Assembly (NCBI GenBank): GCA_964356415.1 | Contig: CAYHHK010000001.1 | Location: 38,057-102,056, forward strand | Reading direction: 5' to 3' | From: an uncultured Flavobacteriales bacterium | Lineage (GTDB): Bacteria > Bacteroidota > Bacteroidia > AKYH767-A > 2013-40CM-41-45 | Length of the DNA: 64,000 bases | Shown here: positions 18,652 to 59,913 of the stretch, piece after piece | How the letters are laid out: the number at the start of each line of letters is the position of its first letter | How positions within the stretch are numbered: the stretch's first letter is position 1 | Program-made: the position numbers and the translations under genes | Notes under the pieces: model-generated | Told to the model about the DNA's origin: nothing | The model's database searches: none | Seen by the model: only the letters and a program-made list of their open reading frames with translations

Positions 18652-18657
18652 GGCAAA

Positions 18658-26797: not shown

Positions 26798-26813
26798 AAT
26801 TTTTGTTTGAATT

Positions 26814-32445: not shown

Positions 32446-32895
32446 TCATGGGGCAGGTCTTTTAAAATCAATCCTGCCTTTATCCGGATGTTGTTTTGAA
32501 TAGCGCACAAAATATTTTCCTCCGGGAACAACAATACTATCCTTTGAGATGGGATGAAAAGTATTGCAATTGCTATAGCTGACACCGTCTGCTTCATATT
32601 GAAATTCAACGCCTTCACCTCGAGCAAATGCATCGCAATAGCCTGATGTAATTCCGGTGGTGTATTGAGGATTTTTCAGCAGTGATGCTTCCTCACGGTA
32701 TTCATTGAAAACAAGAATTAATGCAGAAGAAAGGAGCAGGAGAAGGGAAGAGTTGATTGCGAGCCTTATTTTTGACTCACTGCGGAAAATTCTGAATGCA
32801 TTGTAAATAATTCCTGCGCTTAAGACAACGAGAAGAATTGTTTTTACGATTTGACTTGTGAGCAATTCTTCATCGGTAACAATCTTCAGCAACAT
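32446..32895 (-). CDS. hypothetical membrane-anchored protein tightly coupled to narI
   Basis: 149 aa with two N-terminal TM helices and a soluble C-terminal domain. Its start is 3 nt after the narI stop. Confidence 0.5.
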   Translation of the reverse strand: MLLKIVTDEELLTSQIVKTILLVVLSAGIIYNAFRIFRSESKIRLAINSSLLLLLSSALILVFNEYREEASLLKNPQYTTGITSGYCDAFARGEGVEFQYEADGVSYSNCNTFHPISKDSIVVPGGKYFVRYSKQHPDKGRIDFKRPAP

Positions 32896-32898: not shown

Positions 32899-33627
32899 TT
32901 AGTTATTTTTTGGACGATGTAAAGACCATGGAGTGCGGGGACTGCGTACTTTTCTTCTGTCCCAATACCAACGAACCTGCTGAAATGGACGCCAGATGTA
33001 ATTGAATGGCGGTACCAGAAAGTGAACCATTCGGGAGAAAGGAATGAGACCAATAATTGCAAATGCGCCAATGATGTGCAGTTTTACTGTCCATGGTAAT
33101 GGCACAATGGCTGCAATTTCAGGCTGAAGGGTAAAAATGGAGTAGAGGTAAGGAGTAAGCAGTGATGAAAACCATGATGAACCCCAGCGGAAATTATACG
33201 CAATCCACAAGCCAATCACGGTTTGAAAAATCAACAGCAGGTACACTACCAAGTCCATCCTGTTGGTAACGAATTTCAAGCGGGGAGTGGTATAGCGTCT
33301 GATTAAAAGGTTGACCAAACCAGTCAGCATGCTGATTCCGAAAATGAATGCCGTAATTTCCAGAATCATTAAACGGATTGGCTGACTGTTCCAGGCAAGC
33401 ACTCCATGCGGAAACATGAATGCAATAAGATGGCCGCAGAATAGCACAATCACTCCCCAGTGGAAAGGTACTGAACCGTAAAATAGTTTTCTTCCTTCAA
33501 GAAACTGTGAAGAGAGTGATGAGAACTGAAATCCTTTGTAAGTGTAGCGGTAGATTGAACCAACTAAAAAAACAGCGAGCGCCATGTATGGCAGCGCAAT
33601 AAGGAAGAAGTTGTCAAGTGCATTCAT
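32899..33627 (-). CDS. narI: respiratory nitrate reductase gamma subunit NarI (di-heme cytochrome b)
   Basis: 242 aa with 5 TM helices and conserved heme-ligand His residues (HWGVIVLFCGH; HIIGAF..HFLVPPF). Confidence 0.9.
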   Translation of the reverse strand: MNALDNFFLIALPYMALAVFLVGSIYRYTYKGFQFSSLSSQFLEGRKLFYGSVPFHWGVIVLFCGHLIAFMFPHGVLAWNSQPIRLMILEITAFIFGISMLTGLVNLLIRRYTTPRLKFVTNRMDLVVYLLLIFQTVIGLWIAYNFRWGSSWFSSLLTPYLYSIFTLQPEIAAIVPLPWTVKLHIIGAFAIIGLIPFSRMVHFLVPPFNYIWRPFQQVRWYWDRRKVRSPRTPWSLHRPKNN

Positions 33628-33652: not shown

Positions 33653-34450
33653 TTATTTTTCCTTTTCAATGATTAATTCTATTTCAATATTTTGTTTAAA
33701 ATCTTTATCGGAAGTTATTCCGGAAGGTGCCTGATCAGTCTGGCAAGAGCATGGATCTTGAGAATCCTCGCAGCCGGTTACATGAACGTTGTCAGTAACA
33801 ACTGTATCGTAACCAAAGTCCTCTTTCATTACAATTAGTAAGGCCTGCAGCAAGGTGAAATATACAGCCCTGTATTGTTGTGAGAATTCCAATAGCACTT
33901 TATGATGCTTTTTGTAGATCTCATCTTTCTTTTTAATCTTTTCCTCTGCGAACTCACTTGTCATCTTAATAATGGCCGACATTACCAAACGGGTGGCAAT
34001 TTCATTGCGCATTGCTTCATCTTTCATTTTCGGAAGGAGCCGGAGCACATTGGGTAAATGATCCGATAATTCAGTGTGGCAAATATTTCCTGCTTCACGG
34101 TGCTCGCGGTTGAGATTTACAAGTAGTTGTCCGCGCTTGTAATCTTCTCCAAAAAGAATAAAGCCAATGTCAAGGGTAGTGATAGCCTGCACATCAAATG
34201 AACGAAGATAAAGCTCCTGCATATCAGTCAATGTTGCCGCATCAAGGAACTCCATAAATAAGTTCATGGCATCCGATGCCTTGGGCGAGTGAACTGATAG
34301 ATATTGATGAATTGCCTTGATTTTTTCTTTGTGAGAGTCTGCTTCAGGATAAATAAAAAGATCAGCAAGCAATTCATAATTGCTAATGGCAACAGGATGG
34401 GGTTCTGTATGCGTTGATTTATTATCCTCTTTGTCCAATACTGATTCCAT
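33653..34450 (-). CDS. narJ: nitrate reductase Moco-assembly chaperone NarJ (TorD family)
   Basis: 265 aa acidic helical TorD/NarJ-like protein in the narH-narI interval. Confidence 0.7.
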   Translation of the reverse strand: MESVLDKEDNKSTHTEPHPVAISNYELLADLFIYPEADSHKEKIKAIHQYLSVHSPKASDAMNLFMEFLDAATLTDMQELYLRSFDVQAITTLDIGFILFGEDYKRGQLLVNLNREHREAGNICHTELSDHLPNVLRLLPKMKDEAMRNEIATRLVMSAIIKMTSEFAEEKIKKKDEIYKKHHKVLLEFSQQYRAVYFTLLQALLIVMKEDFGYDTVVTDNVHVTGCEDSQDPCSCQTDQAPSGITSDKDFKQNIEIELIIEKEK

Positions 34451-34461: not shown

Positions 34462-35184
34462 TTAATTGTTCATTGCCAATTCCATCTCAATTGCTTTCGG
34501 AAACAGGATATTGTTTTCCAGGTGTATATGCTGGTGTAAATCATTTTCAAACTCCTGCAATTTTGCATACGAATATCTGAAGCTATTACATGCATCTTCA
34601 GGAACAGTATAGTTGTTGGTTATTTTTCTTATTTCATTCATTAGAAGCCCAACCATCTCATGCTCATCTTCCATCATGCTTACCGGATTGGCCACTGTGC
34701 CGAATGGCGATTGTATTACCTGACCTGTTTTTTTTGATTCAGCTAGTTTTTTAATGTACGGAAAAAGAACCTGCTCCTCTTTCATCATGTGTTGATTTAA
34801 TTCATCCATTACCTTCACAAACAGACTTGCAGCTTCAATAACTTCAGGATGCTGATGTCCATGAACTCGGGCAACTTTTTGTGTGTATTCAAAAATTGGA
34901 GCCATTGCCTGCACCACATATTTGTGATGAGTCTGGATTATGTAATCTGCTAAAAAATTTAAATCCCATGTATTAAAATCTTGTGACGGAAGTTTGGTGG
35001 AAATTTCTGCCTGATGTAATTCTTTCTCTAATTGTTCCTGGCTGATTCCTTTTTCACGGCAGACTTTGGACAACGATTTCTTTCCTCCGCAACAGAAATC
35101 AATTCCATACTTTTTAAATACTTCTACTTTACGGTAATCCTTGGCTGCTATTTCTCCTACCGAAATTTCTTTTATCATGTTCAT
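34462..35184 (-). CDS. ytfE: iron-sulfur cluster repair di-iron protein RIC (YtfE/ScdA family)
   Basis: N-terminal ScdA_N motif (YGIDFCCGG) followed by a hemerythrin-like di-iron domain with H..E/HxxxE motifs. Confidence 0.85.
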   Translation of the reverse strand: MNMIKEISVGEIAAKDYRKVEVFKKYGIDFCCGGKKSLSKVCREKGISQEQLEKELHQAEISTKLPSQDFNTWDLNFLADYIIQTHHKYVVQAMAPIFEYTQKVARVHGHQHPEVIEAASLFVKVMDELNQHMMKEEQVLFPYIKKLAESKKTGQVIQSPFGTVANPVSMMEDEHEMVGLLMNEIRKITNNYTVPEDACNSFRYSYAKLQEFENDLHQHIHLENNILFPKAIEMELAMNN

Positions 35185-35204: not shown

Positions 35205-36755
35205 TTATATACCTCTTCTTACTTTACTTTTAATTCCAAATCCGATTTCACCTTTGGCATCACCTGTGAAGTCCATCATTTCAATGGCTTGCTCGCGGTG
35301 CGCGGGCGGGATTACAAAACGGTCTTCAAACTTAGCCAGTGCAGTAAGATAGAATATGCCATCGGCCATTTCAGCAGTAATGCCAGCTTCCCGCAATGCT
35401 TCATCAGCTTTCTCATCGCTTACATCTCCGACAGTTACTCTTCTTCTGTGAATGCGGACAGCCATCAGTTTTTTCCATTTGTCTTTGATTTTTTCTTCAT
35501 CGCCTGCGCTTAATAAGTTTGCGAGGTATTTCAATGGAAAGCGAACCTGGTCGAGTGTTCCCCATAAATCCTTTGTACTTGTATCATAGAGCCAGTTATC
35601 GTCCCAGTATTTTGCGATCGGGTTCATCTTTCCGGCTTGTGCAGAGTTGTCAACTTGTTTAACTGTAGCCATCACAGGTAACAGAGGTGGTACATAAAAA
35701 AGCATTGGCAGCGTACGGAATTCGGCATGTAGTGGTAGTGCAAGTTTCCATTGTTTGACGTACTTGTATACCGGTGAGAATTGAGCCGCATGAATTGTTG
35801 AATCTGCAACGCCATTCATTTTTGCGGCGCGAATAACTTTTTCATCAAACGGATCAAGAATAATATCAAGATGGCGGTCAATCAGATTTTTCTCATCATC
35901 ATTAATTGCAGATTCAATTTTTGATGCATCATAGAGGAGTACACCAAGGTAGCGGATACGACCAACGCACGAGTGCATGCATGCCGGTGCCAGCCCTGCT
36001 TCAAGGCGCGGAAAGCAAAGGATACATTTCTCGGATTTTCCTGTATGCCAATTGTAATAAGATTTTTTATAAGGGCATGCAGTCACACACATTCTCCATG
36101 CACGGCAAACTTCCTGATTGATAAGCACAACACCATCTTCACCGCGTTTATAGAGCGCACCTGATGGACAAGAAGCAACACAGGCCGGATTCAGGCAATG
36201 ATTGCAGATTCTTGGTAAATAGAAGAATGCCATTCTTTCCAGCTGAAACATTACCTCCTGTTCAGCAGCAGAAAGATTTTTTAGATTTGGGTCGTTGCGG
36301 CCAAAATCCGGTGTTCCGCTCAAGTCATCATCCCAGTTTGGTCCCATTTTAATATCAATAGGTTCCCCGGTGATAAGAGATACAGGCCGTGCCGTCGGCT
36401 GATCATTGCCTTCAGGCGCTTCAATAAGATCAAGATACTTGTAAGTAAACGGCTCGTAATAGTCGTCAATTACCGGCATACTCGGATTGTAAAAGATATT
36501 TGTAAGTCCTCGTCTCTTGCCGGCTCCTTTTAGGGATACTTTCCCATTCTCCTTTTGCCATCCGCCCCTATAAATGCTTTGGTCTTCCCATTTTGTAGGG
36601 TAGCCGGTACCGGGCTTTGTTTCGACATTGTTCCACCACATATATTCTGCGCCTTTCCTGTCAGTCCAGATATTCTTACATGCTACTGAGCAAGTGTGAC
36701 AGCCAATACATTTATCGAGGTGAAATACCATTGATATTTGTGAACGAACATCCAT
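35205..36755 (-). CDS. narH: respiratory nitrate reductase beta subunit NarH
   Basis: 516 aa with four Cys clusters (CIGCHTCSVAC; CNHCLNPACVASC; CRAWRMCVTACPY; CILCFPR...) that are diagnostic of NarH. Confidence 0.95.
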   Translation of the reverse strand: MDVRSQISMVFHLDKCIGCHTCSVACKNIWTDRKGAEYMWWNNVETKPGTGYPTKWEDQSIYRGGWQKENGKVSLKGAGKRRGLTNIFYNPSMPVIDDYYEPFTYKYLDLIEAPEGNDQPTARPVSLITGEPIDIKMGPNWDDDLSGTPDFGRNDPNLKNLSAAEQEVMFQLERMAFFYLPRICNHCLNPACVASCPSGALYKRGEDGVVLINQEVCRAWRMCVTACPYKKSYYNWHTGKSEKCILCFPRLEAGLAPACMHSCVGRIRYLGVLLYDASKIESAINDDEKNLIDRHLDIILDPFDEKVIRAAKMNGVADSTIHAAQFSPVYKYVKQWKLALPLHAEFRTLPMLFYVPPLLPVMATVKQVDNSAQAGKMNPIAKYWDDNWLYDTSTKDLWGTLDQVRFPLKYLANLLSAGDEEKIKDKWKKLMAVRIHRRRVTVGDVSDEKADEALREAGITAEMADGIFYLTALAKFEDRFVIPPAHREQAIEMMDFTGDAKGEIGFGIKSKVRRGI

Positions 36756-36794: not shown

Positions 36795-39700
36795 CTACCA
36801 AACAAGTTTTTCCATTTTCTTGACAATTACGTGGGTATCACGCTGTGGTGCAATTGGTCCCCAATAATTGAAATGGTAGGAGAACTGACCATAGCCGCCA
36901 CTCAGGTAATTTGGTTTTAGATGTGTACGGGTTACACTGTTATGACCACCACCGCGACGGTTTCCTCTTAACTGAGATTTTGGAATTCCAACCGTTCTCT
37001 CCGGCACGTGATAAACGATGCAACTTCCGGGTGCAATCCTTGAACTTACACATGCACGTGTAACATACACACCGTGGTCATTGTGAACTTCTACCCAGTC
37101 ATTATCCTTAATGCCAAGAATTTCGGCATCTTTCTCACTAAGCCAGCAAGGTTCGCAGCCGCGTGATAGTGTCAACATACGAATATTTTCCATATAGGTA
37201 GAGTGGATGTGCCATTTACCGTGCGGAGTCAGGTAATTAAGTGCAAGGGCTTTTCCGTTCTTCCAGGTTTCACGTAAATCGCCATAAACTTCAGGCCGCG
37301 GTGCCGGTTTGTATGTTGGCAGATGCTCGCCATGAGCAATATATAATTCATGGTCAAGGTAAAAATGCTGCCTGCCGGTAAGTGTTCTCCATGGAACCAA
37401 TCTTTCCACATTGTAAGTATATGCTGAATATGCTCTGCCATCATTCATGAGCCCTGACCACAGAGGAGAAGTGTTATACCTGCGTGGCTGAGCTGCCAAA
37501 TCCTGATATCGAAGTTTCACATCTTTGCTTCCTTCACCGAGGTCGGCAAGCTGAAGACCTGTTTTCTTCTCCATGTTTTTATACGCCTGAACATTCAGTT
37601 TTCCATTAGTAAGTGTGGAAAGGTGCAGCACTGCATTTGCGGCCCATTCATCTTCCTGAATAGAAGGAAGTGTTTTACCATTGTATTTTCTCTGATGGAA
37701 ATGATTGGAAGAACACATTTCATCATATTCCTCCTTGCAGAAGTAGTGATTGCCATGAGCACCTAACCCTTTTTCACGTATGCCTTCTCCGAGTGTAATG
37801 AACTTCTCGTAGATTTGGGTATAATCCCTTTCAATAACTGTGAATTTTGGCATTGTTTTTCCAGGAATCGCTTCACATTCACCTTTATACCAGTCCTTAA
37901 TTGAAGGCTGCGAAATTTCGTCTGCTGAGTCATGAGAGAGTGGAGTCATAACGACATCTTTATGCACTCCCGGAAAATACTTTTTAGCCATTTCGCTTGT
38001 GGCTTTTGCAAGGTGCTTAAAAATATCCCAATCTGTTTTTGATTCCCAAACCGGAGCAACTGCCTGACCAAGCGGATGAATAAAGGAATGCATATCCGTG
38101 CTGTTCAGATCAGTTTTTTCATACCATGATGCAGCCGGAAGCACGATATCTGAATAAAGCGCCGATGAGTCCATGCGGAAATTTAAATCCACAACCAAAT
38201 CCATTTTCCCTTCAGGTGCAATTTCATGCCACACAACTTCCTCTGTATGCTCATCAGAATCCTTTCCTATTGAATTGTGGTGGGTGCCTAGATAATGCTT
38301 GAATGCATACTCATGTCCTTTCATACTTCCTGTAATGGCATTACCACGCCATATATACCAAACGCGCGGGAAATTTTCTTCGGCATCAGGGTCATTGATT
38401 GCAAATTTTAATTTTCGTGACTTGAGGTCATCAACAATTCGCTTGATTACATCGGCGTCGGTTTGGGCACCGTCTGCTTCAGCCTCTTTTACAACATCAA
38501 GCGGGTTTTTGTTGAACTGTGGGTAATATGGCATCCATCCATTTCTGACAGAGGTGAAAATACTGTCTGCCGTATGTTTACGGGTAAGTTCATTATCAGG
38601 AACAGCATTGTAATGTGAATGGCGGCCATCATAACGATATTGGCAGGTATTGATATAATGCCAGAGCGGAGCCTGCTGCAGTCTGGCTTGCGGAACCCAA
38701 TCCTTTGCAAAGGTGATTCCACCCCAGGAATCAACCGGTGCAAGTTTTTCTTGTCCAACGTAGTGATTGAGACCCCCGCCATTTTTTCCAAAGCAACCTG
38801 TTAGTGCAATGGTCATGGCTGCTGAACGATAAATTAAATTTGCATGGTACCAGTGGTTGATACCGGCACCAACAATCACCATGCATTTGCCTTTGGTTGT
38901 CTCGGCCGTGTTTCCCCATTCATGAGCAAACTGGATAACTGTTTTTGAATCAATCCCTGTAAAAACTTCCTGCCAGGCAGGAGTATAGGAAGAGTCTTTG
39001 TCTGTATAATCTTTTGGATAATTTCCAACTAGTCCACGGTCAACTCCATATTGACCCATTAACAAATCATAAATGGTTGCTACAGGAACTTTTCCATTTA
39101 CAGTATCAAGGTATTTTACCGGAACACCTCGCAAAAACTTATTATCCAAACCATATTCGATAAATTCTGTCTGCAAAACACCATCATTCTTTTTCAGGTT
39201 GGTGAGAACAGGGTCGTAATTCTTTTCAGTCTCCCCACATTCATATTTCATATTCCATTTTCCACCTGCTTTGTCCCAACGGTATCCCATGGTACCTTTT
39301 GGCACAATGAGTTCTCCTGTTTTTTCATCGATATTCAGGAATTTCCAGTCCCCATTTTCAATATCTTTCCATTTTGAAATTTCATTGGCTCGAACCAATC
39401 TTCCGGGCTTGAAATGATCTCCGTCTTTTTCAAGATGTACGAGGAACGGACTATCAGTATACTGTTTTGTATATTCAATGAAATATGGAACCTGTTTTTC
39501 GTGATGGAACTCTTTTAAAATGATGTGTGTGACTGCCATCCAGAAAGCATTGTCAGTGCCGGGATGTACTGGCACCCACTGGTCAGCATATTTACAAACC
39601 TGGCTGAAGTCAGGAGAGAACACAACTGCTTTTGTTCCATTATGGCGCGACTCTGCAAAGAAGTGACAATCGGGTGTGCGGGTCATATTGAGGCACGCAC

Positions 39701-40412
39701 CCATGTCTGCAATCAGTTTTGAATTATACCAATCGGCGCTCTCACATACATCAGTTTGTTCTCCCCACATTTCAGGGAAATGGGTTGGTAAATCGCAATA
39801 CCAATCATAGAAACTTAGATTAAATCCACCGAATAATTGCAGGAATCGGGCACCGGCTGCATAACTCAGCATTGACATTGCGGGGATAGGGGAGAATCCG
39901 GCAACGCGATCCGGTCCATGTTTTTTTGCAGTATAAATATTTGCTGCTGCCATTATTTCCAGTACTTCATCCCACGAAGTCCTTCTGAAGCCGCCTTTGC
40001 CTCTCGATTTTTGATAGCGCTTGCGTTTCTCTTTATTGTTCTGAAGATTTTCCCAAGCCTTCACCGGGTCGCCGCCGGTTTTTTCTTTTTCCTCTCTGAA
40101 TAAATCCAGAAGCGTACCGCGAATGAGCGGATATTTAATGCGTAGTGGGCTGTACAAATACCAGGAATATGAAATTCCGCGTTGACACCCACGGGGTTCA
40201 TAAGGTGGGAGAGATTCCTCCAGTAAAGGATAATCAAGTTGTTGTGTCTCCCAAACAACGATTCCATCCTTCACATGAATTTGCCAAGAGCAACCACCAG
40301 TGCAGTTTACACCGTGTGTACTCCTGACAATGCGGTCGTGCTGGAAACGGTTGCGATAAAACTCCTCCCACTGGCGTGTTTTTGGCGAAATAATGTCTTC
40401 AATCCAACTCAT
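36795..40412 (-). CDS. narG: respiratory nitrate reductase alpha subunit NarG (cytoplasm-facing, no Tat signal)
   Basis: 1205 aa with the FS0 ligand motif [18 protein letters not shown] (H-x3-C-x3-C). The N-terminus [11 protein letters not shown] has no RR motif. Confidence 0.95.
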
Positions 40413-40433: not shown

Positions 40434-41300
40434 TTAGTACATTGATTTAGTTTGTCTTTCATAGATGGCATGATTCACAGTTCGCTGTTTTCTTTTTATC
40501 CAGAAGAATGAGAACAAAGTCAGAAGCACGGCAACTCCACCGATTCCGCCCATCAGCATTTTATTTCCAACAGTACTTGTTGCTTGTGTTGCTGCAACTT
40601 CATCAGCATGCTTCAAAAAAGCGGTAACATCTGCAATCTCTGTTTCTGTCAGAGGCCTTGCTTCATATGATTGCCGCATCTGAGGAAATGGCAATCCTGC
40701 GATCACTCCTTTCACACCATCAACAGTTAGTCTTGAAACCGACTGGCTGAGGTCTTTTGCCAGCGCACCACCACTCATGAAGCCTTCCAGATTAACATTA
40801 TGACATGCATTGCAGGTAGGACCGTTATTGGCAAAGCGAATTTTTCCGACAAATAAATCTTGTCCGCGTTGCACATTGCCTGTAGCGGAAGTCATTGTTT
40901 TTAAACTATCAGTGGCAGACTGTGTAACAGACGCTATGGAAGAAGCAGCCGGACTGTTGGTTTTGATATACCTAATTACCTCCCTGATCTGGGCGTCACT
41001 CAAAGCCGGCTGATCCGGCATAGGTACCTGATTGTAGGCTTTGAAAAGTGAATCGGCATATTTATCTCCGCTCTTTATTACTGATTGGGAGGATTTCACA
41101 AACTTAATTATCCAATCCTCTGACTGGCGCAGGTCAATATTTGCCAGATCAGGTCCAACGAGGCGTCCACTGCCAATACTATGACAGGCTGCACAAGTTT
41201 GCTTAAAAGTTGATTCACCTCCATTTTGAGAAGAAGCGGTAAATGTTGCAGTGCAGCATATTAATAAAAATGAAATAGATTTGAGCGTGTGTAATTTCAT
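40434..41300 (-). CDS. di-heme c-type cytochrome, periplasmic, with a C-terminal TM anchor (NarC-like)
   Basis: Signal peptide, two CxxCH motifs (CAACH and CNACH) and a C-terminal hydrophobic helix GGIGGVAVLLTLFSFFWI. It sits 21 bp upstream of narG. Confidence 0.85.
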   Translation of the reverse strand: MKLHTLKSISFLLICCTATFTASSQNGGESTFKQTCAACHSIGSGRLVGPDLANIDLRQSEDWIIKFVKSSQSVIKSGDKYADSLFKAYNQVPMPDQPALSDAQIREVIRYIKTNSPAASSIASVTQSATDSLKTMTSATGNVQRGQDLFVGKIRFANNGPTCNACHNVNLEGFMSGGALAKDLSQSVSRLTVDGVKGVIAGLPFPQMRQSYEARPLTETEIADVTAFLKHADEVAATQATSTVGNKMLMGGIGGVAVLLTLFSFFWIKRKQRTVNHAIYERQTKSMY

Positions 41301-41361
41301 TTGATTACTATTTTGTAATTAATGGTTGAGGATAATTATTCTAGGCCGAACTAATTGATTT

Positions 41362-41934
41362 TTATTTTTTATAAAATGCTCTTTCATTTTCATACATATC
41401 CCCAATTTCATCAGCCCACCTTGCAATCCTTCTGGAAATTGCATAAACAGCAATCAACAATATGGCGGCAATACTGAAAAAGAAATAATCGAATACAGAA
41501 AACTTAAAAGCAACTTTCTTGATTGCCGGCGCATCCGCGGCTGCTGCAGGCGTTGTTACTGAAGCGGATGCTGTCTTGCCTTCAGTATCAATATAACTGA
41601 GAATTGACTTGATCTCATCATCTTTAAGGAATGCGAAATCAGTCATTACTATTTTATTGTAGTCATTAAATAATGCAATGGCGTCTTTGTCACCTGATTT
41701 TACCATGGATTGTGATGACTTAATCCAATTTATCAGCCATTTTTCGTCACGCCTTTGCTGAATGCCAGCTAAGTCAGGTCCAACCAGCTTACCGCTGCCA
41801 ATGCTATGGCAGGCTGCACAGTTGCTTTTATACAGCTGCTTGCCTGATGAAGCATCCGGTATTTGGGCAAATGATTCAGATGAGTAAACGGTAAGAAATA
41901 GTAATACTGTGACAATGAAGGATATCTTATGCAT
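41362..41934 (-). CDS. mono-heme c-type cytochrome, periplasmic, with a C-terminal TM anchor (paralog of the first domain of the downstream di-heme protein)
   Basis: Signal peptide, a CAACH motif and a C-terminal TM helix. The N-terminal ~90 aa are highly similar to 40434..41300 (GKQLYKSNCAACHSIGSGKLVGPDLAGI...WIKSSQSMVKSGDK). Confidence 0.85.
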   Translation of the reverse strand: MHKISFIVTVLLFLTVYSSESFAQIPDASSGKQLYKSNCAACHSIGSGKLVGPDLAGIQQRRDEKWLINWIKSSQSMVKSGDKDAIALFNDYNKIVMTDFAFLKDDEIKSILSYIDTEGKTASASVTTPAAAADAPAIKKVAFKFSVFDYFFFSIAAILLIAVYAISRRIARWADEIGDMYENERAFYKK

Positions 41935-42135: not shown

Positions 42136-43587
42136 ATGCGGATTTTACTCACCGGAGCGAATGGCTATATCGGAATGCGTCTTTTACCGGTTTTGGTTGA
42201 AGCAGGACATGATGTTACCTGTATCGTAAGAGACAGTAGCCGCTTTAGGCATAATCCTGATGTGCACAGGAAAATTTCTATTATTGATTTTGATTTTTTG
42301 AGCAATGGAAAATTGAATGAATATTTTTCAGGTATGCAATTTGACGTTGCATACTACCTTATCCATTCTCTCAAGGACACTTTCGTTGCGCTTGAGGAAC
42401 ATGAAAAAAAATCTGCGTTATGTTTTGTTGAAGTAGCCCGCATCACCGGAGTAAAGCAAATCATTTACCTTGGAGGTATCAGCAATGCAAGTGCCCTTTC
42501 GACTCACCTCAATGCGCGAAAAATTGTTAAGGATATTTTACAGAACTCCGGCATTGCGTATACAATTTATGAGGCAGGAATAATCGTTGGATCAGGCAGT
42601 GCTTCGTTTGAAATCATTCGTGATCTGGTAGAAAAAATGCCGGTAATGATAGCTCCAAGATTAATCAATTCTAAATGTCAGCCGATTGCAATCCGAAACG
42701 TTATTCGGTATCTTCTTGATTCAGTCATGAATGATAGATTATTTAATAAAACTTTTGAAATAGGAGGACCTGATGTATTAACCTATAAAGAAATGATGCT
42801 GCAATTTGCAGAAGTTCGTGGTTACAGGCGCTATATTTTTACCATCCCTTTTCTTACGCCCCGGATTTCCTCCTACTGGTTATTCATTGCAACTTCAACT
42901 AATTTTACCATTGCCCGGCAGCTGATGGAGAGTTTGAAAAATGATGTCGTTTGTAAGGATAATTCTATTCGGGAAATTATATCACAGGAATTGATACCAT
43001 ACCGGGAAGCTATTCAAATGGCATTTCAGATGATAAACCAAAATATGGTTTTGTCTTCATGGAAAGATGCTTCATCCAGTACATTGCATCATCTTGAGAT
43101 AAATAATTATGTGCAGGTTCCTGTTAATGGTTGTTTCAGGGATCGTAAGTGGAAGGAGATTCCGGAAGATAGTGTTGAAGAAGTTGCAGACCGATTTTTT
43201 GGAATTGGCGGTATTCATGGATGGTATTACGCCGATATTTTATGGAGGATGCGCGGCATCATTGATAGAATGTTCGGAGGTGTAGGCTTAAGAAGAGGCA
43301 GAAGAAATGAAAACGACTTGCAGCCCGGAGATGCGCTTGATTTCTGGCGGGTAATCCTTGCTGACCGTAAGAATCGCCGCCTGCTTTTATTCGCAGAAAT
43401 GAAAATACCGGGTGAGGCCTGGTTGGAATTTTCAATTGTAAAATTTCATGACCATTATATTTTGAAGCAAACAGCAACCTTCCGGCCGCATGGTATTGCA
43501 GGTCGGAACTACTGGTATGCAATGCTGCCGTTTCATTTTTTTATCTTTAGGAATATGCTTAAGAAAATTGCAAAAAGATCAAACTAA
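42136..43587 (+). CDS. NAD(P)-binding (NmrA/SDR-type) domain protein with a C-terminal DUF2867-like domain
   Basis: It is the only confidently plus-strand gene. The N-terminus is MRILLTGANGYIGMRL, a Rossmann motif. 483 aa. Confidence 0.7.
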   Translation: MRILLTGANGYIGMRLLPVLVEAGHDVTCIVRDSSRFRHNPDVHRKISIIDFDFLSNGKLNEYFSGMQFDVAYYLIHSLKDTFVALEEHEKKSALCFVEVARITGVKQIIYLGGISNASALSTHLNARKIVKDILQNSGIAYTIYEAGIIVGSGSASFEIIRDLVEKMPVMIAPRLINSKCQPIAIRNVIRYLLDSVMNDRLFNKTFEIGGPDVLTYKEMMLQFAEVRGYRRYIFTIPFLTPRISSYWLFIATSTNFTIARQLMESLKNDVVCKDNSIREIISQELIPYREAIQMAFQMINQNMVLSSWKDASSSTLHHLEINNYVQVPVNGCFRDRKWKEIPEDSVEEVADRFFGIGGIHGWYYADILWRMRGIIDRMFGGVGLRRGRRNENDLQPGDALDFWRVILADRKNRRLLLFAEMKIPGEAWLEFSIVKFHDHYILKQTATFRPHGIAGRNYWYAMLPFHFFIFRNMLKKIAKRSN

Positions 43588-44321
43588 ATTCCGGCTCCGA
43601 TACTTTTCCCGCCGTCAACATAAATTGTCTGCCCTGTAATAAACTGATTTTGCACCGAGACAAGAAAGGAAACCAGGTTTGCAATATCTTCAGGCTTACC
43701 CATTGTTTTGGTCGGTTGTGCCTCTATCAGTTTACCAAGAACAGCAGGATTCAATTTTTGTGTCAGGGGTGTATCAATCAATCCCGGTGCAATTGCATTG
43801 ACCAGCACATTGTGTCTTCCGAGTTCCAAAGCAAGTACTCTTGTAAGGGCAACAATCCCGGCTTTTGATGCTGAGTAGTTTGATTGGCCGGCATTTCCCA
43901 GCCATGCACGTGAAGAAATATTTACGATTCGCCCGCTCTTTTGTTCTTTCATGATCCGTGAGGCTTCACGGCACATCAACCAAGTTCCTTTCAGGTTTAC
44001 GTTCAGTACCGAATCAAAATCTTCCATGCTCATGTTCCAGATCATTTTATCTCTGATAATTCCCGCATTGTTAATGAGTACGTCAAGTCTTTTATACTCT
44101 ATCATTATTTTTTCAAAGAGAGATTTCACAATTAGTTCTTTGGTGATATCGGCTTTTGCAAAACTGAGTTTGCTTTTACCGAATTTTGTAAGCAATTTTT
44201 TTCCGTTTGCGGCATCCATATCTACAGCAATTACAAAGTAATCTTCGTCAATCAGTTTTTTCGTAATTGCCTTGCCAATTCCATTGGCCGCTCCGGTGAC
44301 GATGGCTATTTTAGGCTCCAT
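43584..44321 (-). CDS. SDR family oxidoreductase (FabG-like 3-oxoacyl reductase family)
   Basis: TGAANGIGKA cofactor motif, NNAG and catalytic YxxxK (YSASKAG). Confidence 0.85.
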   Translation of the reverse strand: MEPKIAIVTGAANGIGKAITKKLIDEDYFVIAVDMDAANGKKLLTKFGKSKLSFAKADITKELIVKSLFEKIMIEYKRLDVLINNAGIIRDKMIWNMSMEDFDSVLNVNLKGTWLMCREASRIMKEQKSGRIVNISSRAWLGNAGQSNYSASKAGIVALTRVLALELGRHNVLVNAIAPGLIDTPLTQKLNPAVLGKLIEAQPTKTMGKPEDIANLVSFLVSVQNQFITGQTIYVDGGKSIGAGI

Positions 44322-45162
44322 GTAATAGTGGTAGAGTTAAGCATGTTTCCATTTTTATATCCGCTTCATGTGTGTGATTGCTATCTGATCCTGCTTGACC
44401 CGGGTATTTGTCATTTGAACGCGCGACAATTTTCGCAACAATGCCCAAAGCAATTTCGGCCGGTGAATGCTGCCCGATGTCATATCCCATTGGCATGTCA
44501 ACTTCATTTAGTTGGCCCTGCGTTGTGATATTTTGTTGAAGAAATAATTTTCGTGTGACTAAAACTTTTCTCAAGCTTCCAATCATTCCAAGATATGCAT
44601 GCGGCTGATTTATGCTCAGGGCGAGGATTTCCCTGTCGTAGTCATGGGAATGGGTACAGATAACAATGTATGTATTGCTATCAAATGTAATTTTTGAAAA
44701 TGCCTGTTGATGGGGCAGATTGAATTTTGTCACCTCAGAGAGCTGGATTTTCCTGATATATTCCTTCCTTTCATCAACAATAACTATTTCGAAGTCTAAT
44801 TTATCTGCGAAATAGGAAATGTTGCTTCCTATGTGTCCTGCACCGAAAATAATTAGCTGCTTCCTCGGCTTCATGGGTTCAATAAATATTTTCATGCTTC
44901 CGCCGCAACACATCTTCTCTTTAAGAAGTGCATATTCTTCTAGCTTTGGACGGCCCGATTGATATGTTGCAATTGCAATTTCAATCACTTTCTTTTCGAT
45001 ATTTCCTCCTCCGATGGTTCCTGCGCATCTGCCATTTTCCCAAACAAGCATTTTGGCACCTGCCTTCAAAGGTGTGCTGCCACTGGTTTCAACAACTGTG
45101 CAGAGGGTTATGTGCTCTCTTTGTGCCGATGCATTATTGAGTATTTCAGTGAATCGGATCAT
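44311..45162 (-). CDS. xdhC: XdhC/CoxI family molybdoenzyme maturation factor
   Basis: 283 aa with an XdhC N-terminal domain and a Rossmann-like C-terminal domain (LIIFGAGHIG). Confidence 0.8.
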   Translation of the reverse strand: MIRFTEILNNASAQREHITLCTVVETSGSTPLKAGAKMLVWENGRCAGTIGGGNIEKKVIEIAIATYQSGRPKLEEYALLKEKMCCGGSMKIFIEPMKPRKQLIIFGAGHIGSNISYFADKLDFEIVIVDERKEYIRKIQLSEVTKFNLPHQQAFSKITFDSNTYIVICTHSHDYDREILALSINQPHAYLGMIGSLRKVLVTRKLFLQQNITTQGQLNEVDMPMGYDIGQHSPAEIALGIVAKIVARSNDKYPGQAGSDSNHTHEADIKMETCLTLPLLHGA

Positions 45163-45769
45163 GGGTAAAATATTTCCTGTATTCCTCTTTTGTATTGATG
45201 TTTGCGTGTATGTTGCTGTCGTTTGTTTTCAACTGCTCAAAAGGATATTTCTCTAGGATAGCCCTTAGATTGGTTTCCGGCTGTGTTGCTTTTTTGATGT
45301 CCTGTAAAATTTCAGCTGACACCAATACAGGGTGCCCATGTTTGTTATTGTTTTCCGGAACTACATATTTCCCTACCAAAAGTCTCTTCATCATTTGTTC
45401 AAGGAGTGCAGTGGTTGTAAAAGGATTGTCAATGTTCTGAATAAAGGCACTGTTTTTTGTATTGATTGCATTTACTCCAAGTTTTACACTAAAAAATCTG
45501 CCGTCTTCAGGATGTTCATTGATTATAGTGGTAATATTCGTTTTATTCTTAAGCGGTTTGATCAATTCTTTTGCCTTCTTCGCGGTTTCAGTATTTAAGA
45601 CGATCACAATGTCCGGAATATTTGCATCAATATAAACCATTGTCAGTCTTTCAAGAAACGAAATGGATGAATTAAATTTCAGGAAACATTTTGGACTACC
45701 GAAGCGTTCCGATTTGCCTGCTGAGAGTATGATTGCAGAAACAAAGCCGCTGCCGGGTTGTTTATTCAT
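45146..45769 (-). CDS. mocA: MobA-like NTP transferase, MocA-type molybdenum cofactor cytidylyltransferase candidate
   Basis: AIILSAGKSERFGSPK nucleotidyltransferase motif. Adjacency to xdhC suggests MCD-cofactor synthesis for the XDH-family enzyme. Confidence 0.65.
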   Translation of the reverse strand: MNKQPGSGFVSAIILSAGKSERFGSPKCFLKFNSSISFLERLTMVYIDANIPDIVIVLNTETAKKAKELIKPLKNKTNITTIINEHPEDGRFFSVKLGVNAINTKNSAFIQNIDNPFTTTALLEQMMKRLLVGKYVVPENNNKHGHPVLVSAEILQDIKKATQPETNLRAILEKYPFEQLKTNDSNIHANINTKEEYRKYFTHDPIH

Positions 45770-47772
45770 GTTCCTTTATATTCAACATTTCTGCCAAGAG
45801 AACTAAGCCCAATCAAGGCATCTTTGGAAATAAAGATGTTTTTTAAATCATCCAATTCTGAAATATTAAGATCACAACCATTAATCAGTTTTTCAGAAAC
45901 ATATAGGGCAAGAGGAGCATTCCCTTTGACCTTATTGATAATTCTTTCTGCATCTTCTTTGTCGAGATGATCAAGGCTGTATTCCAGGTGGAGCAGGTGG
46001 TCAAGTGAATTGGCCTCGAAAAATGTTTTTATAGCAAGACATCGCTCTTCAATATTCTTAACGCCCAACGGTATGGAATCAATGGCCATCTCTCCCGATA
46101 AAATTTTAGGAATATCTTCTTTCTGAATGATGCTGTCGATAAGACCGATTTCAGAAGCATGGGTTGCAGTTACTTTTTTTCCTGTATATATCAGATACTT
46201 CGCGAGCCCTTTGCCGACTCTTCTTGCTGTGCGTTTGGCACCACCCAGTCCTGGATAGATTCCGATGCCTGTTTCCGGAAATGCCAGTTTGGCGCCCTGA
46301 ACGGAGAGTATGAGATCGGCACACAATGCAAGTTCTAATCCACCGCCAAGCGCCATTCCATTTAATATTACCACAACTTTCTTTTTTGATTTGTCAATTT
46401 TTTCAAAAAGTTGCTGCCCGAAACTTGTGAAGTCAACAATTCTGTCAACTGAATGATTCTTTATGTTGTTTACGAAGAAATTGATATCTGCTCCTGCTAC
46501 AAAAGCTTTTCCTGTACCTGTGATAAAAATGGTTTTGACGGAGGAATAATTTTCTGCCTGCGAGAATTTCTCATTCAATTGATTTATTACTTCTTCATTC
46601 AAGGCATTCAGTTCTTCAGGTCGGTTTATTGTTATGATGGCTATGTCATCTTTATTTTCCAGAAGGACATAATCCATATGCCAGGAAGAAGAGGATACGA
46701 TGGGGATAGCTTCATTGTAGTGTCTTGCATAATTATTCACCAGACGCTTTACTTCTTCTTCTCCGGTTCTTTTCATTAAATCTACGGGACCATATTTCCA
46801 ACGAAGGCCGATTTTGGCACCCTTGTTTAAATCTACTGCAGAGCATACTCCGTCGTTAAGAATCTGAGTGCAGATAAAAAATACACAACCAAGCAGCCGT
46901 TCATTGATTACTTTGTTTGAGACTGGATTCAGTTCTGCTGAATTTAGCTCCGCAATTTTCCAGTTTTCTTTTTTTGCTGCAAGCTGTTCGAGCATGGGTG
47001 CAATTTTGTAGGATGGTCCAAAAAACTCAAGTGTTCGCTGGGCATGCATTGCAATGGAAACTCCGGTAGCATTCATCAATGCGAAAGGCCCCATTCCGAT
47101 TTTGAAAATTTTCATGCAGGCAGAATCAATACTTTCAATTGTTCCAATGTTTTCAGACAATAGCTTTACGGATTCATTCAGCCATGGAACAAAAAAACGA
47201 TTCACCGCAAATCCATAAACGTCTTTGCAGATAATTGCATCCTTACCCGATAGCATACAGAATGTTTTTGCATTCTCTATTGTTGTTGCTGAAGTTTGGG
47301 TTCCGGGAATAATTTCAACGAGGCGGTTTTTTGCTGCGTGATAAAAATAATGCAGGCCGATAAACCGTTCAGGATGTTTCACTGTGGCAGAAAGTTCAGA
47401 TACCGAAAACGAAGAAGTGTTTGTTGCAATGATCGTTTCTTCAGGTACAATTTCTGAAAGCGCTTTAAACAGATCGCTTTTTGCCTTGAAATCTTCGAAT
47501 ATAGCTTCAATGATAATATTGCAGATTTTTAATTCCTGCAGGTCAGCTGTTCCTTTAAGATTGGATAAGGAGTTAATAACTTCCTCCTCTTTAAAAATAT
47601 TTTTTGCCACCCCTTCGTTCAGCATCGTTTTGATACCGCCCAGGCCTTTCTCTACAAACTTCATTTCCTTGTCGGCAAGAATAACTGTAAAGCCTTCCTG
47701 AACAAATTTTTGAGCCAGGGCAGAGCCCATTGTTCCTGCCCCAATTACGCCGACAGTTTTGATATTTTTCAT
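45766..47772 (-). CDS. bifunctional 3-hydroxyacyl-CoA dehydrogenase (N-terminal) / enoyl-CoA hydratase (C-terminal)
   Basis: 668 aa. The N-terminus carries VGVIGAGTMGSALAQ (HADH NAD site) and the C-terminus has a crotonase fold. Its stop overlaps the mocA start (ATGA). Confidence 0.85.
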   Translation of the reverse strand: MKNIKTVGVIGAGTMGSALAQKFVQEGFTVILADKEMKFVEKGLGGIKTMLNEGVAKNIFKEEEVINSLSNLKGTADLQELKICNIIIEAIFEDFKAKSDLFKALSEIVPEETIIATNTSSFSVSELSATVKHPERFIGLHYFYHAAKNRLVEIIPGTQTSATTIENAKTFCMLSGKDAIICKDVYGFAVNRFFVPWLNESVKLLSENIGTIESIDSACMKIFKIGMGPFALMNATGVSIAMHAQRTLEFFGPSYKIAPMLEQLAAKKENWKIAELNSAELNPVSNKVINERLLGCVFFICTQILNDGVCSAVDLNKGAKIGLRWKYGPVDLMKRTGEEEVKRLVNNYARHYNEAIPIVSSSSWHMDYVLLENKDDIAIITINRPEELNALNEEVINQLNEKFSQAENYSSVKTIFITGTGKAFVAGADINFFVNNIKNHSVDRIVDFTSFGQQLFEKIDKSKKKVVVILNGMALGGGLELALCADLILSVQGAKLAFPETGIGIYPGLGGAKRTARRVGKGLAKYLIYTGKKVTATHASEIGLIDSIIQKEDIPKILSGEMAIDSIPLGVKNIEERCLAIKTFFEANSLDHLLHLEYSLDHLDKEDAERIINKVKGNAPLALYVSEKLINGCDLNISELDDLKNIFISKDALIGLSSLGRNVEYKGT

Positions 47773-48557
47773 TTTGAAAGTGCTTTATTATTTTCCCAGA
47801 CGGGTTTTCTTTTCTCTAAAAATGAATTGATGCCTTCATTCGCGTCATGGGTTTCCATCAGTTGCCTTACATACATGCTTTCAAGTTGCTGAAGAAAATT
47901 GGTTAAGACATGATTGAATTTAGCCCGTGATGCTCTTACTGCAAAGCGGAGTGAGGTGGCGCTTTTTGGAATAATTTGATCTGCAATCCATTTTTCAATA
48001 CCTGTATCCATTGTGGCCTTGTCATCAAACAGTTCATTCACCAATCCTATTTGTCTGGCTTCTTCTGCATGAAAGGTCCTTCCGGTAAGAAGTATTTCTT
48101 CTGCCCTTGCCAAGCCGATTTTTTCAGGAAGGATAACTGAAGCAGGAGGGGGGAAGACCCCAAGTACAATTTCGGGCTGCCCGAATCTGGCTGTTTTGTC
48201 GGCAAAAATAAAATTGCACATAATCGCAAGTTCCATTCCGCCACCAAGACATTGTCCTGAAACTTTTGCCAGAGTTGGGATGGACAGATCTCTTAGCGTA
48301 TAAAACAATGCATGAAAATTCTGAAGCATGGTTGAAGCAAATTCTTTTTTATGTTCTTCTACACTTGCCCCAAAGGAAAAATGCTTCCCTGCGCCTTCAA
48401 GAATAATCAGCTTAACCTGGGAATTAGCACGAAATGTATTTAATACAGACTGCAATTCTTCAATCATCACGTGGTCAAGTACATTTCCTTTGCCGTCATC
48501 AAGAATCACATTGATAACAGTATCATTATGGCTGTAAATAATTTTAACTTTTTCCAT
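47769..48557 (-). CDS. enoyl-CoA hydratase/isomerase (crotonase) family; dienoyl-CoA hydratase (Dch)-like candidate
   Basis: 262 aa with crotonase oxyanion-hole segments (LEGAGKHFSFGAS; CLGGGMELA). Function inferred from size and context with had/oah-like genes. Confidence 0.8.
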   Translation of the reverse strand: MEKVKIIYSHNDTVINVILDDGKGNVLDHVMIEELQSVLNTFRANSQVKLIILEGAGKHFSFGASVEEHKKEFASTMLQNFHALFYTLRDLSIPTLAKVSGQCLGGGMELAIMCNFIFADKTARFGQPEIVLGVFPPPASVILPEKIGLARAEEILLTGRTFHAEEARQIGLVNELFDDKATMDTGIEKWIADQIIPKSATSLRFAVRASRAKFNHVLTNFLQQLESMYVRQLMETHDANEGINSFLEKRKPVWENNKALSK

Positions 48558-48559
48558 TG

Positions 48560-49660
48560 TCAGGTATTAACTTTTTGGTATTGTGGCGAGATCGTTCTGT
48601 GCATTTCATCATTCCATTCATTTCCCTGCGCCAGGAGTTGACGCAGTTTGATGAAATCTACTTCACGGTCCTCTTTTGGTCCGTCATTAAAGGCTTTGAA
48701 TCCAGCCTTCGCTTCTGTCATCATATTTAGTGCAAGCCACTCGCGGCTGCCTTCCTTGTTTTTATCCCAGTGTTCGAGTTTGAATTTGCGAACTTCACTG
48801 ATGGTTTTTGTCATGCAGTTGGGGAATGTGTAAAGTAGTTTGGTGATCAGGTTATTTACCGCCTTGTCCAGCATCGATAAATCTGTTTCGGCAGTTGCTA
48901 AAATCTCTTTTGCTTTTTTCAATTCATCGCCTGATTTGGAAGTTCCGAAAATGACACGTCCGAATTCATTAGTGATTTTATCTGTTACCACCATTGGATT
49001 TGGAGTAAACTGACCATTCACTTTTAGCACAGGAACTATTTCTGTAATAACCCCAAAATAATATGCCTGATGTGCGGTCCACGGTTCACAAAGCGTGAGA
49101 GACATCATTGCCCGCTCAACGCCTACAAAAAGCGGAAGGAAATCAGTGGCGCCTCCAATGGGTGCACTCCCGTGTTTTGGACCTGCCTGGCCGAATCTTG
49201 CCATGTCACTGGCTATGCTGAAGTCGCAGGCCATTCCTATTTCCTGGCCACCGCCAATACGCATTCCGTTAACACGATTGATTACAGGTTTTTCGCATTT
49301 CAATATTGCACTTACCATGTCATTGAACAACCGCATATATTGTGAGTACTCCTGCGGGTTTCCGGCATAATACTCGGCATACTCTTTTGTGTTTCCGCCT
49401 GTACAAAATGCTTTGTCACCAACTGCAGTAAAAACAACTGCAACTACACTCCTGTCGTTTGATGCTTCTCCAAATGCCAGAATGATTTCTTTTACTGCCG
49501 AAGTCGTGTATGAATTATATTGTTTTGGATTATTAAGATAAATCCAGGCATTGTATAACCCATCTATGGGATTGCCATTTTTGTCAAGGCAGTTCTTTTT
49601 CTCAAAAATGATTTCTTTATATACTGCTGTGACGATGTTGTGATTTTTTAGGTTGCTCAT
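48560..49660 (-). CDS. crotonase-superfamily protein with a C-terminal extension; 6-oxocyclohex-1-ene-1-carbonyl-CoA hydrolase (Oah/BamA)-like candidate
   Basis: ~366 aa from the ATG at 49660 (MSNLKNH...). Crotonase core (AFCTGGNTKEY; GMRIGGGQEIGMACDF) plus a ~100 aa C-terminal extension. The longer track ORF would overlap the upstream T9SS gene. Confidence 0.7.
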   Translation of the reverse strand: MSNLKNHNIVTAVYKEIIFEKKNCLDKNGNPIDGLYNAWIYLNNPKQYNSYTTSAVKEIILAFGEASNDRSVVAVVFTAVGDKAFCTGGNTKEYAEYYAGNPQEYSQYMRLFNDMVSAILKCEKPVINRVNGMRIGGGQEIGMACDFSIASDMARFGQAGPKHGSAPIGGATDFLPLFVGVERAMMSLTLCEPWTAHQAYYFGVITEIVPVLKVNGQFTPNPMVVTDKITNEFGRVIFGTSKSGDELKKAKEILATAETDLSMLDKAVNNLITKLLYTFPNCMTKTISEVRKFKLEHWDKNKEGSREWLALNMMTEAKAGFKAFNDGPKEDREVDFIKLRQLLAQGNEWNDEMHRTISPQYQKVNT

Positions 49661-49664
49661 TGTT

Positions 49665-50852: not shown

Positions 50853-50858
50853 GAAGGT

Positions 50859-51968: not shown

Positions 51969-51970
51969 AA

Positions 51971-55131: not shown

Positions 55132-55148
55132 TTTATTTTCTTCAAAGG

Positions 55149-56399: not shown

Positions 56400-56400
56400 A

Positions 56401-58149: not shown

Positions 58150-58160
58150 TTTGATTATTA

Positions 58161-59910: not shown

Positions 59911-59913
59911 TGG

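Follow-up and report, generated by a model that had tools for sequence, protein, structure and literature searches.

The membrane-bound nitrate reductase (Nar) of Thermus, NarGHI, has as its fourth subunit a periplasmic di-heme cytochrome c, NarC. Thermus narC mutants contain NarG in a soluble, immature form, and NarC is required both for NarG maturation and for its attachment to the membrane (PMC7694296, PMC10609526). NarC interacts with the membrane subunit NarI in two-hybrid assays and is needed for growth on nitrite and on nitric oxide (NO) under repression of complex III, with the distal heme as the more important one (PMC7694296). Thermus NarG is devoid of the N-terminal end that binds NarJ and of the beta-hairpin that contacts NarI in Escherichia coli, and this short N terminus has been offered as a possible reason why assembly requires NarC and NarI (Magalon review, PMC10609526). 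According to a 2020 review on Thermus, NarC is absent from the nar operons of mesophiles (PMC7694296). Here we analyzed a stretch of 64,000 nucleotides (nt) from an uncultured Flavobacteriales bacterium (contig CAYHHK010000001.1, positions 38,057 to 102,056; hereafter called the window), in which two membrane-anchored c-type cytochromes that we call cytA and cytB are encoded ahead of narG. The second of them is a homologue of NarC.

Both open reading frames (ORFs) exist, on the minus strand, at the coordinates that an earlier note on this DNA had given for two signal-bearing, C-terminally anchored c-type cytochromes. The cytB gene (41300..40434) codes for a di-heme cytochrome c of 288 amino acids (aa), in which Pfam Cytochrom_C matched two stretches (E 6.9e-17). 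The protein is composed of a signal peptide, heme domain 1, a flexible linker rich in Ala, Ser, Thr and Pro (aa 116-140), heme domain 2, a transmembrane helix and a conserved cytoplasmic tail. Its heme motifs are CAACH (aa 36-40, nt 41195..41181), with Met94-Pro95 providing the presumed ligand, and CNACH (aa 163-167, nt 40814..40800), with the presumed ligand Met208 in PFPQM; both CXXCH motifs, both Met residues and Pro95 were invariant in an alignment of 19 sequences. The helix (aa 248-266, Kyte-Doolittle hydropathy 2.05) and the tail (aa 267-288) are encoded at nt 40437..40559, and the tail reads KRKQRTVNHAIYERQTKSMY, with KRKQR following the helix. Cleavage of the signal-like N terminus is predicted between ASS and a Gln residue that was invariant in the 19 cytB homologues. 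Gln after the cleavage site is usual in Bacteroidota signal peptidase I substrates, a habit with which this invariant residue fits. Anchoring of cytB as a lipoprotein was rejected, as LLICC is not a lipobox and the homologues show a plain cleavage site between Ala and Gln.

The cytA gene (41934..41362) codes for a mono-heme class I cytochrome c of 190 aa that matched Pfam PF00034 (Cytochrom_C, E 1.9e-10). Its signal-like segment has a predicted cleavage site between SFA and Gln. Direct reading of the sequence located the heme motif CAACH at aa 39-43 (nt 41820..41806), and the presumed sixth ligand, the Met at aa 96 (VMTDF), was invariant in 21 orthologues. Between the heme domain and the C-terminal transmembrane helix (aa 145-163, nt 41446..41502, mean Kyte-Doolittle hydropathy 2.24) lies a linker rich in Ala, Ser, Thr and Pro (aa 118-145), and behind the helix follows the basic tail ISRRIARWADEIGDMYENERAFYKK. 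In both proteins the combination of a signal peptide, a single C-terminal helix and a basic tail places the heme domains in the periplasm and the tails in the cytoplasm. The N-terminal heme domain is duplicated between the two proteins, as had been surmised, with 44% identity over 123 aa (E 3e-34).

The homology of cytB to Thermus NarC was established at several levels. When cytB was compared with 72,556 plasmids in a translated search, the top matches were megaplasmids of Thermus (E 2e-14 to 3e-13, 28% identity, residues 28-246). The gene matched in T. thermophilus JL-18 codes for a 262-aa "c-type cytochrome" and is located immediately upstream of narG-narH-narJ-narI and the major facilitator superfamily (MFS) gene narK, i.e., it is narC. 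Direct comparison of cytB with Thermus NarC by blastp gave an E value of 3e-22 with 28% identity over 223 aa, and a profile of the 19-sequence family aligned to NarC using hhalign (99.8%, E 5.8e-29) over 228 columns, spanning both heme domains and the helix. The part of cytB best conserved with Thermus NarC was heme domain 2. The resemblance to Thermus NarC that had been noticed earlier thus reflects genuine homology. Like cytB, Thermus NarC has a signal peptide, two class I heme domains, a C-terminal transmembrane helix and a basic tail, and its gene comes first in the operon, directly ahead of narG. The sequence and positional features of a NarC, namely homology, two CXXCH motifs with Met ligands, a single C-terminal anchor and a gene preceding narG, are all found in cytB. 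The tails differ in their motif, which is FWIKRKxRTVNxxIYxRQIKS in the cytB family versus LWQLRPRSLAERIRAQLRR in Thermus NarC. No Pfam or NCBIfam model specific for NarC matched cytB, and no such NCBIfam model matched Thermus NarC; the models that matched the two proteins were generic, or were weak hits to QcrC or CcoP.

In a neighbor-joining tree of individual heme domains, Thermus heme 1 grouped with all domain-1 sequences, including the heme domains of cytA and of every other cytA-type protein, and Thermus heme 2 grouped with the domain-2 sequences. The two-domain plan is therefore common to Thermus and Bacteroidota, and cytA represents a copy of domain 1. The match of cytA to Thermus NarC was weak (E 9e-7), and cytA does not have the full NarC architecture, as it contains one heme domain of the domain-1 type with an anchor and a tail of its own that differ from those of cytB. 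Judged by sequence, we consider cytB to be the Bacteroidota version, and a new member, of the NarC family, and cytA to be a separately anchored paralogue of the first, distal heme domain of NarC, not itself a NarC.

The enzyme encoded behind the two cytochromes has the characteristics of a cytoplasm-facing NarGHI. NarG (40412..36795; TIGR01580, 1436 bits, cut-off 1084), NarH, the iron-sulfur subunit (36755..35205; TIGR01660, 645 bits, cut-off 524), and NarI, the di-heme b quinol-oxidizing membrane subunit (33627..32899; PF02665, E 7e-59; TIGR00351, 120 bits, cut-off 106), all scored above their equivalog cut-offs. The translated NarG N terminus contains neither a twin-arginine motif nor a hydrophobic signal region; having no twin-arginine translocation (Tat) signal, the catalytic subunit faces the cytoplasm. 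NarI possesses the four His residues expected for its two b hemes (His56/His66 and His184/His202, counted from the translation). Identities to the Thermus subunits were 58% for NarG, 57% for NarH, 39% for NarI and 33% for NarJ. In both NarG proteins the match to TIGR01580 starts at profile position 27, and their N termini align collinearly, with 71% identity over the initial 80 aa, so that the short NarG N terminus associated with NarC in Thermus is also present in the window. A longer NarG starting from an upstream codon was ruled out, because the ORF opens only 21 nt past the cytB stop codon.

The gene order on the minus strand is cytA-cytB-narG-narH-ric-narJ-narI-u149. The cytochrome genes are co-oriented with narG and tightly spaced, as described earlier, with 61 nt between cytA and cytB and 21 nt between the cytB stop codon and the narG ATG. 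A terminator scan revealed no terminator-like hairpin in the cytA-cytB gap or in the cytB-narG gap, and the GC content is even over the region (0.40-0.43). The genes of the narGHJI operon inferred earlier are thus present, yet the operon is not a plain narGHJI, as ric is inserted between narH and narJ and u149 follows narI. These two genes belong to the window operon and set it apart from that of Thermus. The systems also differ in that the window host has a mesophilic, low-GC (about 40%) Bacteroidota-type genome, and in that the separately anchored extra domain 1, cytA, is lacking in Thermus. Genes of the Nrc or DnrST/DrpAB types known from Thermus were not recognized among the scanned ORFs of the window; here and below, the Pfam scan covered the ORFs outside 43584..64000.

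We then determined how widespread this arrangement is. A word-indexed search returned cytB relatives in 799 clusters at 90% identity, of which the named ones were all from Bacteroidota or Ignavibacteria and labelled only "c-type cytochrome". An exhaustive profile search among 1.84 billion representatives at 50% identity yielded 632 representatives at E<=1e-30, and a search with NarC as the query also returned relatives with Acidimicrobiia names. A scan of one genome per species identified 50 loci in Chitinophagaceae, Saprospiraceae, Sphingobacteriales, Flavobacteriales, Cytophagales, Bacteroidales and Lentimicrobiaceae, as well as in one metagenome-assembled genome of Ignavibacteria and one of Rhodothermia. 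Contig ends truncate three of these loci. Each of the remaining 47 encodes, on the narG strand, a CXXCH protein whose gene terminates 22-149 nt upstream of narG, with narH-narJ-narI following. This distribution over many families gives no support to the rarity outside Thermus-like systems that the earlier note had assumed.

The composition of the cytochrome part varies between loci, confirming the idea of a split or duplicated arrangement. Leaving out one locus cut at its edge (L016), the di-heme protein was found alone in 22 of 46 loci. A cytA-type mono-heme protein preceded the di-heme protein, as in the window, in 8 loci. In 12 further "split" loci the cytA-type protein was followed by a protein of 174-212 aa that has its own signal peptide and contains only domain 2, the helix and the tail, and in the last 4 loci these latter elements occurred alone, one of these loci (L050) having a cytA-like gene between narJ and narI. 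Orthologues of cytA were present in 20 nar loci. The representative library also contained fused forms with three or four hemes (P0242, P0289, P0241 and P0243), in which heme domains precede the NarC core. The gene for the tri-heme form P0242 (L059:6001-7269) is directly upstream of narGHJI; on its other side it immediately follows a cbb3 oxidase cluster, ccoNOQP-ccoGH-ccoI. In the cultured Maribellus sp. CM-23, narGHJI is preceded by the di-heme form. The constant core of these proteins is thus made up of domain 2, the helix and the tail, while domain 1 is a module present in zero to three copies, in cis or in trans. The distal domain may be supplied on the same polypeptide, on an anchor of its own, in multiple copies, or not at all.

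The cytoplasmic tails fall into two distinct types. In the cytB family, the 20-residue tail with the consensus given above ranks with the most strongly conserved regions of the protein, with F266, W267, R270, K271, V275, N276, R282, Q283 and S286 invariant in 19 sequences. The cytA tail differs from it and carries the motif D-x-Y-x-x-[DE]-[RK]-[AS]-F-[FY], conserved in 21 nar-linked orthologues with D-[YF]-Y-S-S-D-R-S-F-F as its consensus end. P0135 and P0125, which have the motif, are nar-linked as well. The motif is absent from the non-nar relatives P0143 and P0146. The gene for P0143 adjoins a DUF2249-ScdA-hemerythrin (RIC-like) gene with no nar genes nearby, and that for P0146 adjoins a heme A synthase gene, with a Crp regulator and a NorC/NorB-like pair in the vicinity. 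As the motif is found in nar-linked members and lacking in the others, we argue that cytA is a dedicated partner of Nar, not a general carrier encoded there by chance. Conservation of this kind argues that the tails of cytA and cytB would each make specific contacts on the cytoplasmic side. At L054:11566-13361, a Crp-type regulator gene is followed by genes for a cytochrome c of 141 aa and a COX1-family protein of 457 aa (NorC/NorB-like). A cytA-like anchored cytochrome without the nar tail motif is encoded near this pair, beside a CtaA/COX15 gene; from this context, related tethered cytochromes serve other respiratory enzymes.

Other known cytochromes share parts of this design. Domain 2 and the anchor of cytB align with QcrC of the actinobacterial bcc complex (PDB 6hwh_M, 7rh5_O and 6adq_C; profile E 3e-8; NF050122, E 8e-9), a di-heme, C-terminally anchored protein that relays electrons from a quinol-oxidizing module, and many NarC relatives are annotated as QcrC by the Joint Genome Institute (JGI). 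This likeness fits with a relay role. Unlike a QcrC gene, however, cytB has neither a Rieske nor a cytochrome b gene next to it, and the partner here is NarI. That cytB is itself a bc1 or bcc subunit was rejected, as NF050122 gave only 35.1 bits against a cut-off of 200, and so was its identity with the cbb3 oxidase subunit CcoP (TIGR00782, 28.4 bits, cut-off 180). Neither qcrA or qcrB nor ccoN or ccoO was found among the Pfam-scanned ORFs. The possibility raised earlier that the cytochromes belong to a cbb3 or other oxidase finds no support, given the scores far below the cut-offs, the lack of oxidase genes among the scanned ORFs and the synteny with narG in 47 of 47 loci. Class I domains of the same kind as cytA and cytB domain 1 (motif CxxCHxxGxGxxVGPDL, PDB profile E about 1e-16) occur in ActA of the Flavobacterium Alternative Complex III (6btm_A) and in Sco1-cytochrome c fusions (2l4d).

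Tethered mono-heme carriers of the cytochrome cy type resemble cytA in having a flexible, low-complexity linker attached to one membrane helix. In cytochrome cy this anchoring helix is N-terminal and is not cleaved off, whereas the anchor of cytA is C-terminal and followed by the nar-specific cytoplasmic motif. By its description, the cytochrome c of the Nitrobacter nxr cluster is encoded together with an enzyme of the NarG type that faces the cytoplasm and with a homologue of NarI (PMC7694296). It was proposed to exchange electrons with this homologue, in an enzyme that runs in the oxidative direction (PMC7694296).

Taking these observations together with Thermus genetics, we propose that cytB and cytA are additional Nar subunits that probably help to anchor NarGH to NarI and pass electrons from NarI to periplasmic acceptors. 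The two proteins would be exported and their signal peptides cut before Gln, with heme attachment assumed to occur in the periplasm, and the single C-terminal helix would tether each protein while its basic tail remains in the cytoplasm. The helices may then pack on NarI, and the tails may contact the cytoplasmic face of NarI or NarGH, serving as the anchor in place of the N-terminal segment that NarG lacks. Such a substitution would explain why Thermus needs NarC for NarG maturation and attachment. By analogy with the Thermus phenotypes, quinol would be oxidized at NarI, from which electrons would flow inward to NarH and NarG for nitrate reduction. They might alternatively exit from the periplasm-side heme b to the proximal, constant domain-2 heme, and from there to the distal domain-1 heme, mobile on its flexible linker, which would deliver them to periplasmic nitrite, NO or nitrous oxide (N2O) reductases or to an oxidase. 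NarI and NarC would thereby act as a small quinol:cytochrome c oxidoreductase. With one distal domain in cis and one in trans, the complex encoded in the window would have three c hemes.

Several observations count against this proposal. The mechanism is transferred from Thermus, whose NarC is the only one that has been studied, at an identity of only 28%, and the idea that a tail replaces the NarG N terminus is purely conjectural. The loci were collected by searching for the cytochrome and so show that it goes with nar; they do not show that a cytochrome accompanies all nar operons of Bacteroidota. Distal domains are not obligatory, as shown by the four loci with domain 2 only. Regarding the acceptors, no nitrite, NO or N2O reductase gene was found among the Pfam-scanned ORFs of the 64-kb window, and none was a recurrent neighbor when all ORFs up to 10 kb to either side of the 50 related operons were clustered. 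The AlphaFold2 model of the cytB monomer, built from the 19-sequence alignment, was too poor for use (predicted local distance difference test score [pLDDT] 61.5, predicted TM score 0.36), with most of domain 2 and the linker below pLDDT 50.

It is also conceivable that the helices and tails serve only to hold NarGH on NarI, with the hemes outside the physiological electron path. Such a purely structural role would account for the soluble, inactive NarG of Thermus narC mutants, for both NarG proteins lacking the N-terminal segment, and for the fact that the tails are among the best conserved parts, in a constant core of domain 2, helix and tail. We nevertheless regard it as rather unlikely, because no heme motif or Met ligand varies among more than 45 species, because the distal domains occur in duplicated and split forms and in numbers of up to four per protein, which makes sense for a relay but not for a scaffold, and because the distal heme matters for nitrite and NO respiration in Thermus. 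Input of electrons, as suggested in the earlier note, is unlikely too. According to this explanation, the cytochromes would gather electrons from the cytochrome c pool, for instance downstream of Alternative Complex III, and feed them to NarGH via NarI. The architecture permits either direction, and domain 2 of cytB resembles QcrC. Nitrate reduction by Nar1 of Streptomyces coelicolor is reported to need the bcc-aa3 supercomplex, of which the di-heme cytochrome c QcrC is a part (PMC7931247). Electrons are also said to pass between the homologues of NarI and NarC in the reverse-running Nitrobacter enzyme (PMC7694296). Against input, NarI retains the two His pairs and its scores are those of an ordinary quinol-oxidizing NarI, and the need for NarC in nitrite and NO respiration of Thermus points to output. 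The c hemes have high potentials, and the b hemes and NarH clusters have lower ones. By general redox knowledge, electrons entering through the cytochromes would thus have to travel uphill. Of the functions considered earlier, feeding from a cytochrome c pool therefore loses ground, while a part in assembly, combined with electron output, is what Thermus genetics favors (PMC7694296).

Whether cytA might be a general membrane-tethered carrier for oxidases or other reductases, akin to cytochrome cy and merely adjoining the operon, was considered as well. Related anchored mono-heme cytochromes of 185 aa occur in non-nar contexts (P0146 and P0143), and among the 46 informative related loci there are 26 that have no cytA. 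On the other hand, the nar-linked subgroup has a tail motif that its non-nar relatives lack, the cytA-type protein is the sole source of domain 1 in the 12 loci in which its partner has lost that domain, the fused forms carry the same domain on the NarC polypeptide, and just 61 nt without a terminator-like site separate cytA from cytB, all of which makes this role quite improbable. Least plausible by far is operation in reverse as a nitrite oxidoreductase, in which, as has been proposed for Nitrobacter, the cytochromes would link NarI to an oxidase by carrying its electrons there. A similar gene cluster does exist in Nitrobacter hamburgensis (PMC7694296), but NarG scored well above the narG equivalog cut-off, two NarK-type transporter genes follow the operon, molybdenum cofactor biosynthesis genes lie beside it, FNR/CRP-type regulators precede the operon in 13 related loci as judged by reading their sequences, and the host lineages are heterotrophic Bacteroidota. 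An anchoring subunit that also passes electrons out of NarI remains the interpretation that we favor.

The remaining genes of the window operon and its surroundings are also on the minus strand. The ric gene (35184..34462; TIGR03652, 252 bits) codes for an RIC/YtfE-type di-iron protein for repair of iron-sulfur clusters. Its location between narH and narJ was encountered only in the window and in none of the 50 related loci, L001-L050, three of which have a copy upstream on the opposite strand. In L056, a gene for a 137-aa hemerythrin lies between narG and narH. DUF2249-ScdA-hemerythrin genes recur around related operons, and DUF2249 genes are located behind narK in Thermus. Such neighbors suggest a link between Nar and the repair or sensing of nitrosative stress. 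The narJ-like gene (34450..33653) matched TIGR00684 with 51.8 bits, just under the cut-off of 59, and its position is conserved. The u149 gene (32895..32446) begins 3 nt past narI and codes for a conserved 149-aa membrane protein without a Pfam or NCBIfam match. Its hydrophobic helices are N-terminal, and its C-terminal part has the conserved motif G.T.GyC..fa.G.GieFeYe..G.....CntfP...vpggky.VR...GRm.F. The gene is found behind narI in 39 related loci and is absent from the Thermus operon; u149 may be a further Nar partner or assembly factor specific to Bacteroidota.

A beta-carbonic anhydrase gene (32420..31788; PF00484) comes next. Two genes for NarK-like MFS transporters (28313..25451) are found further downstream of the nar genes; they occupy 26814..28313 and 25451..26866, with an overlap of 53 nt. 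Just upstream of this pair, at 28320..28904, is a gene for a 194-aa membrane protein with a conserved position and no family match. A gene for an Alginate_exp-type outer-membrane porin (21027..22313) and one for a hemerythrin-domain protein (22335..23045) are located beside a molybdenum cofactor biosynthesis block (20976..14113), which consists of a moaC-mog fusion, a ThiF/rhodanese MoeB-like gene, a MobA-like gene, TauE, moeA and moaA. Together, this block, the nar operon and the narK genes look like a self-contained nitrate-respiration island. In 10 related loci (L010, L021, L022, L025, L029, L032, L037, L040, L042 and L043), the NarK gene is followed by a gene for a multi-helix membrane protein of about 360 aa (e.g., L037:20052-21143), which is not present in the window. 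Judged by eye, it is similar to TehA/TDT (SLAC1-like) anion channels and may be a nitrate or nitrite channel.

As to regulation, reading of representative sequences suggested that FNR/CRP- and Rrf2-type regulators, the TehA/TDT-type transporter and hemerythrin/RIC genes are recurrent neighbors of the related operons. CRP/FNR-like genes were recognized by eye beside the cytochrome gene in 13 loci (L003, L012, L017, L020, L026, L029, L045, L046 and L050, and also L015, L019, L023 and L042), one group of them with an N-terminal Cys cluster. Where relatives carry these genes, the window has a divergent DUF2867/NAD-binding gene at 42136..43587. No FNR/CRP box (TTGAT-N4-ATCAA, with <=2 mismatches) was present in the 200 nt upstream of cytA, and the counts over the whole window were below chance. 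Alignment of the upstream intergenic region with those of two loci sharing the divergent DUF2867 gene revealed no conserved motif. Sites resembling sigma-70-type promoters were fewer than in shuffled sequences, an uninformative count from a scan that does not cover Bacteroidota promoters.

Concerning NarC in Bacteroidota, Chitinophagaceae or Ignavibacteria, we found nothing specific in the literature, whose coverage in our search was incomplete and thus no proof of absence; the papers on "narCGHJI" all dealt with Thermus. In the literature that we found, there is no description of the series of duplicated, split and fused forms, of the constant core or of how widely these proteins occur in mesophilic Bacteroidota. 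NarC is common and modular in Bacteroidota living at ordinary temperatures and is not an oddity of thermophiles, narG being regularly accompanied by a NarC-type subunit in the genomes that were found for Chitinophagaceae, Saprospiraceae, Sphingobacteriales and Flavobacteriales. The finding helps with annotation and with making sense of denitrification by bacteria that are common in the environment and does not represent a new principle. The loci constitute a natural series, from di-heme to duplicated, split and fused forms, for the study of how electron-relay domains are gained and lost, and Maribellus sp. CM-23 is a cultured organism in which the function of NarC is testable. A broader scenario, which we put forward tentatively, is that in the abundant mesophilic Bacteroidota of sludge, soil and sediment, NarI-NarC might be an unrecognized quinol:cytochrome c oxidoreductase that replaces complex III in denitrification. 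The number of distal domains would tune its output or choice of partner, cytA would provide a second outlet, e.g., to N2O reductase or a cbb3 oxidase, and the tails of cytB and cytA would clamp NarGH on NarI. If NarI-NarC does divert quinol electrons in this manner, this would affect how energy yield, nitrite accumulation and N2O turnover are modelled for the bacteria of wastewater and soil.

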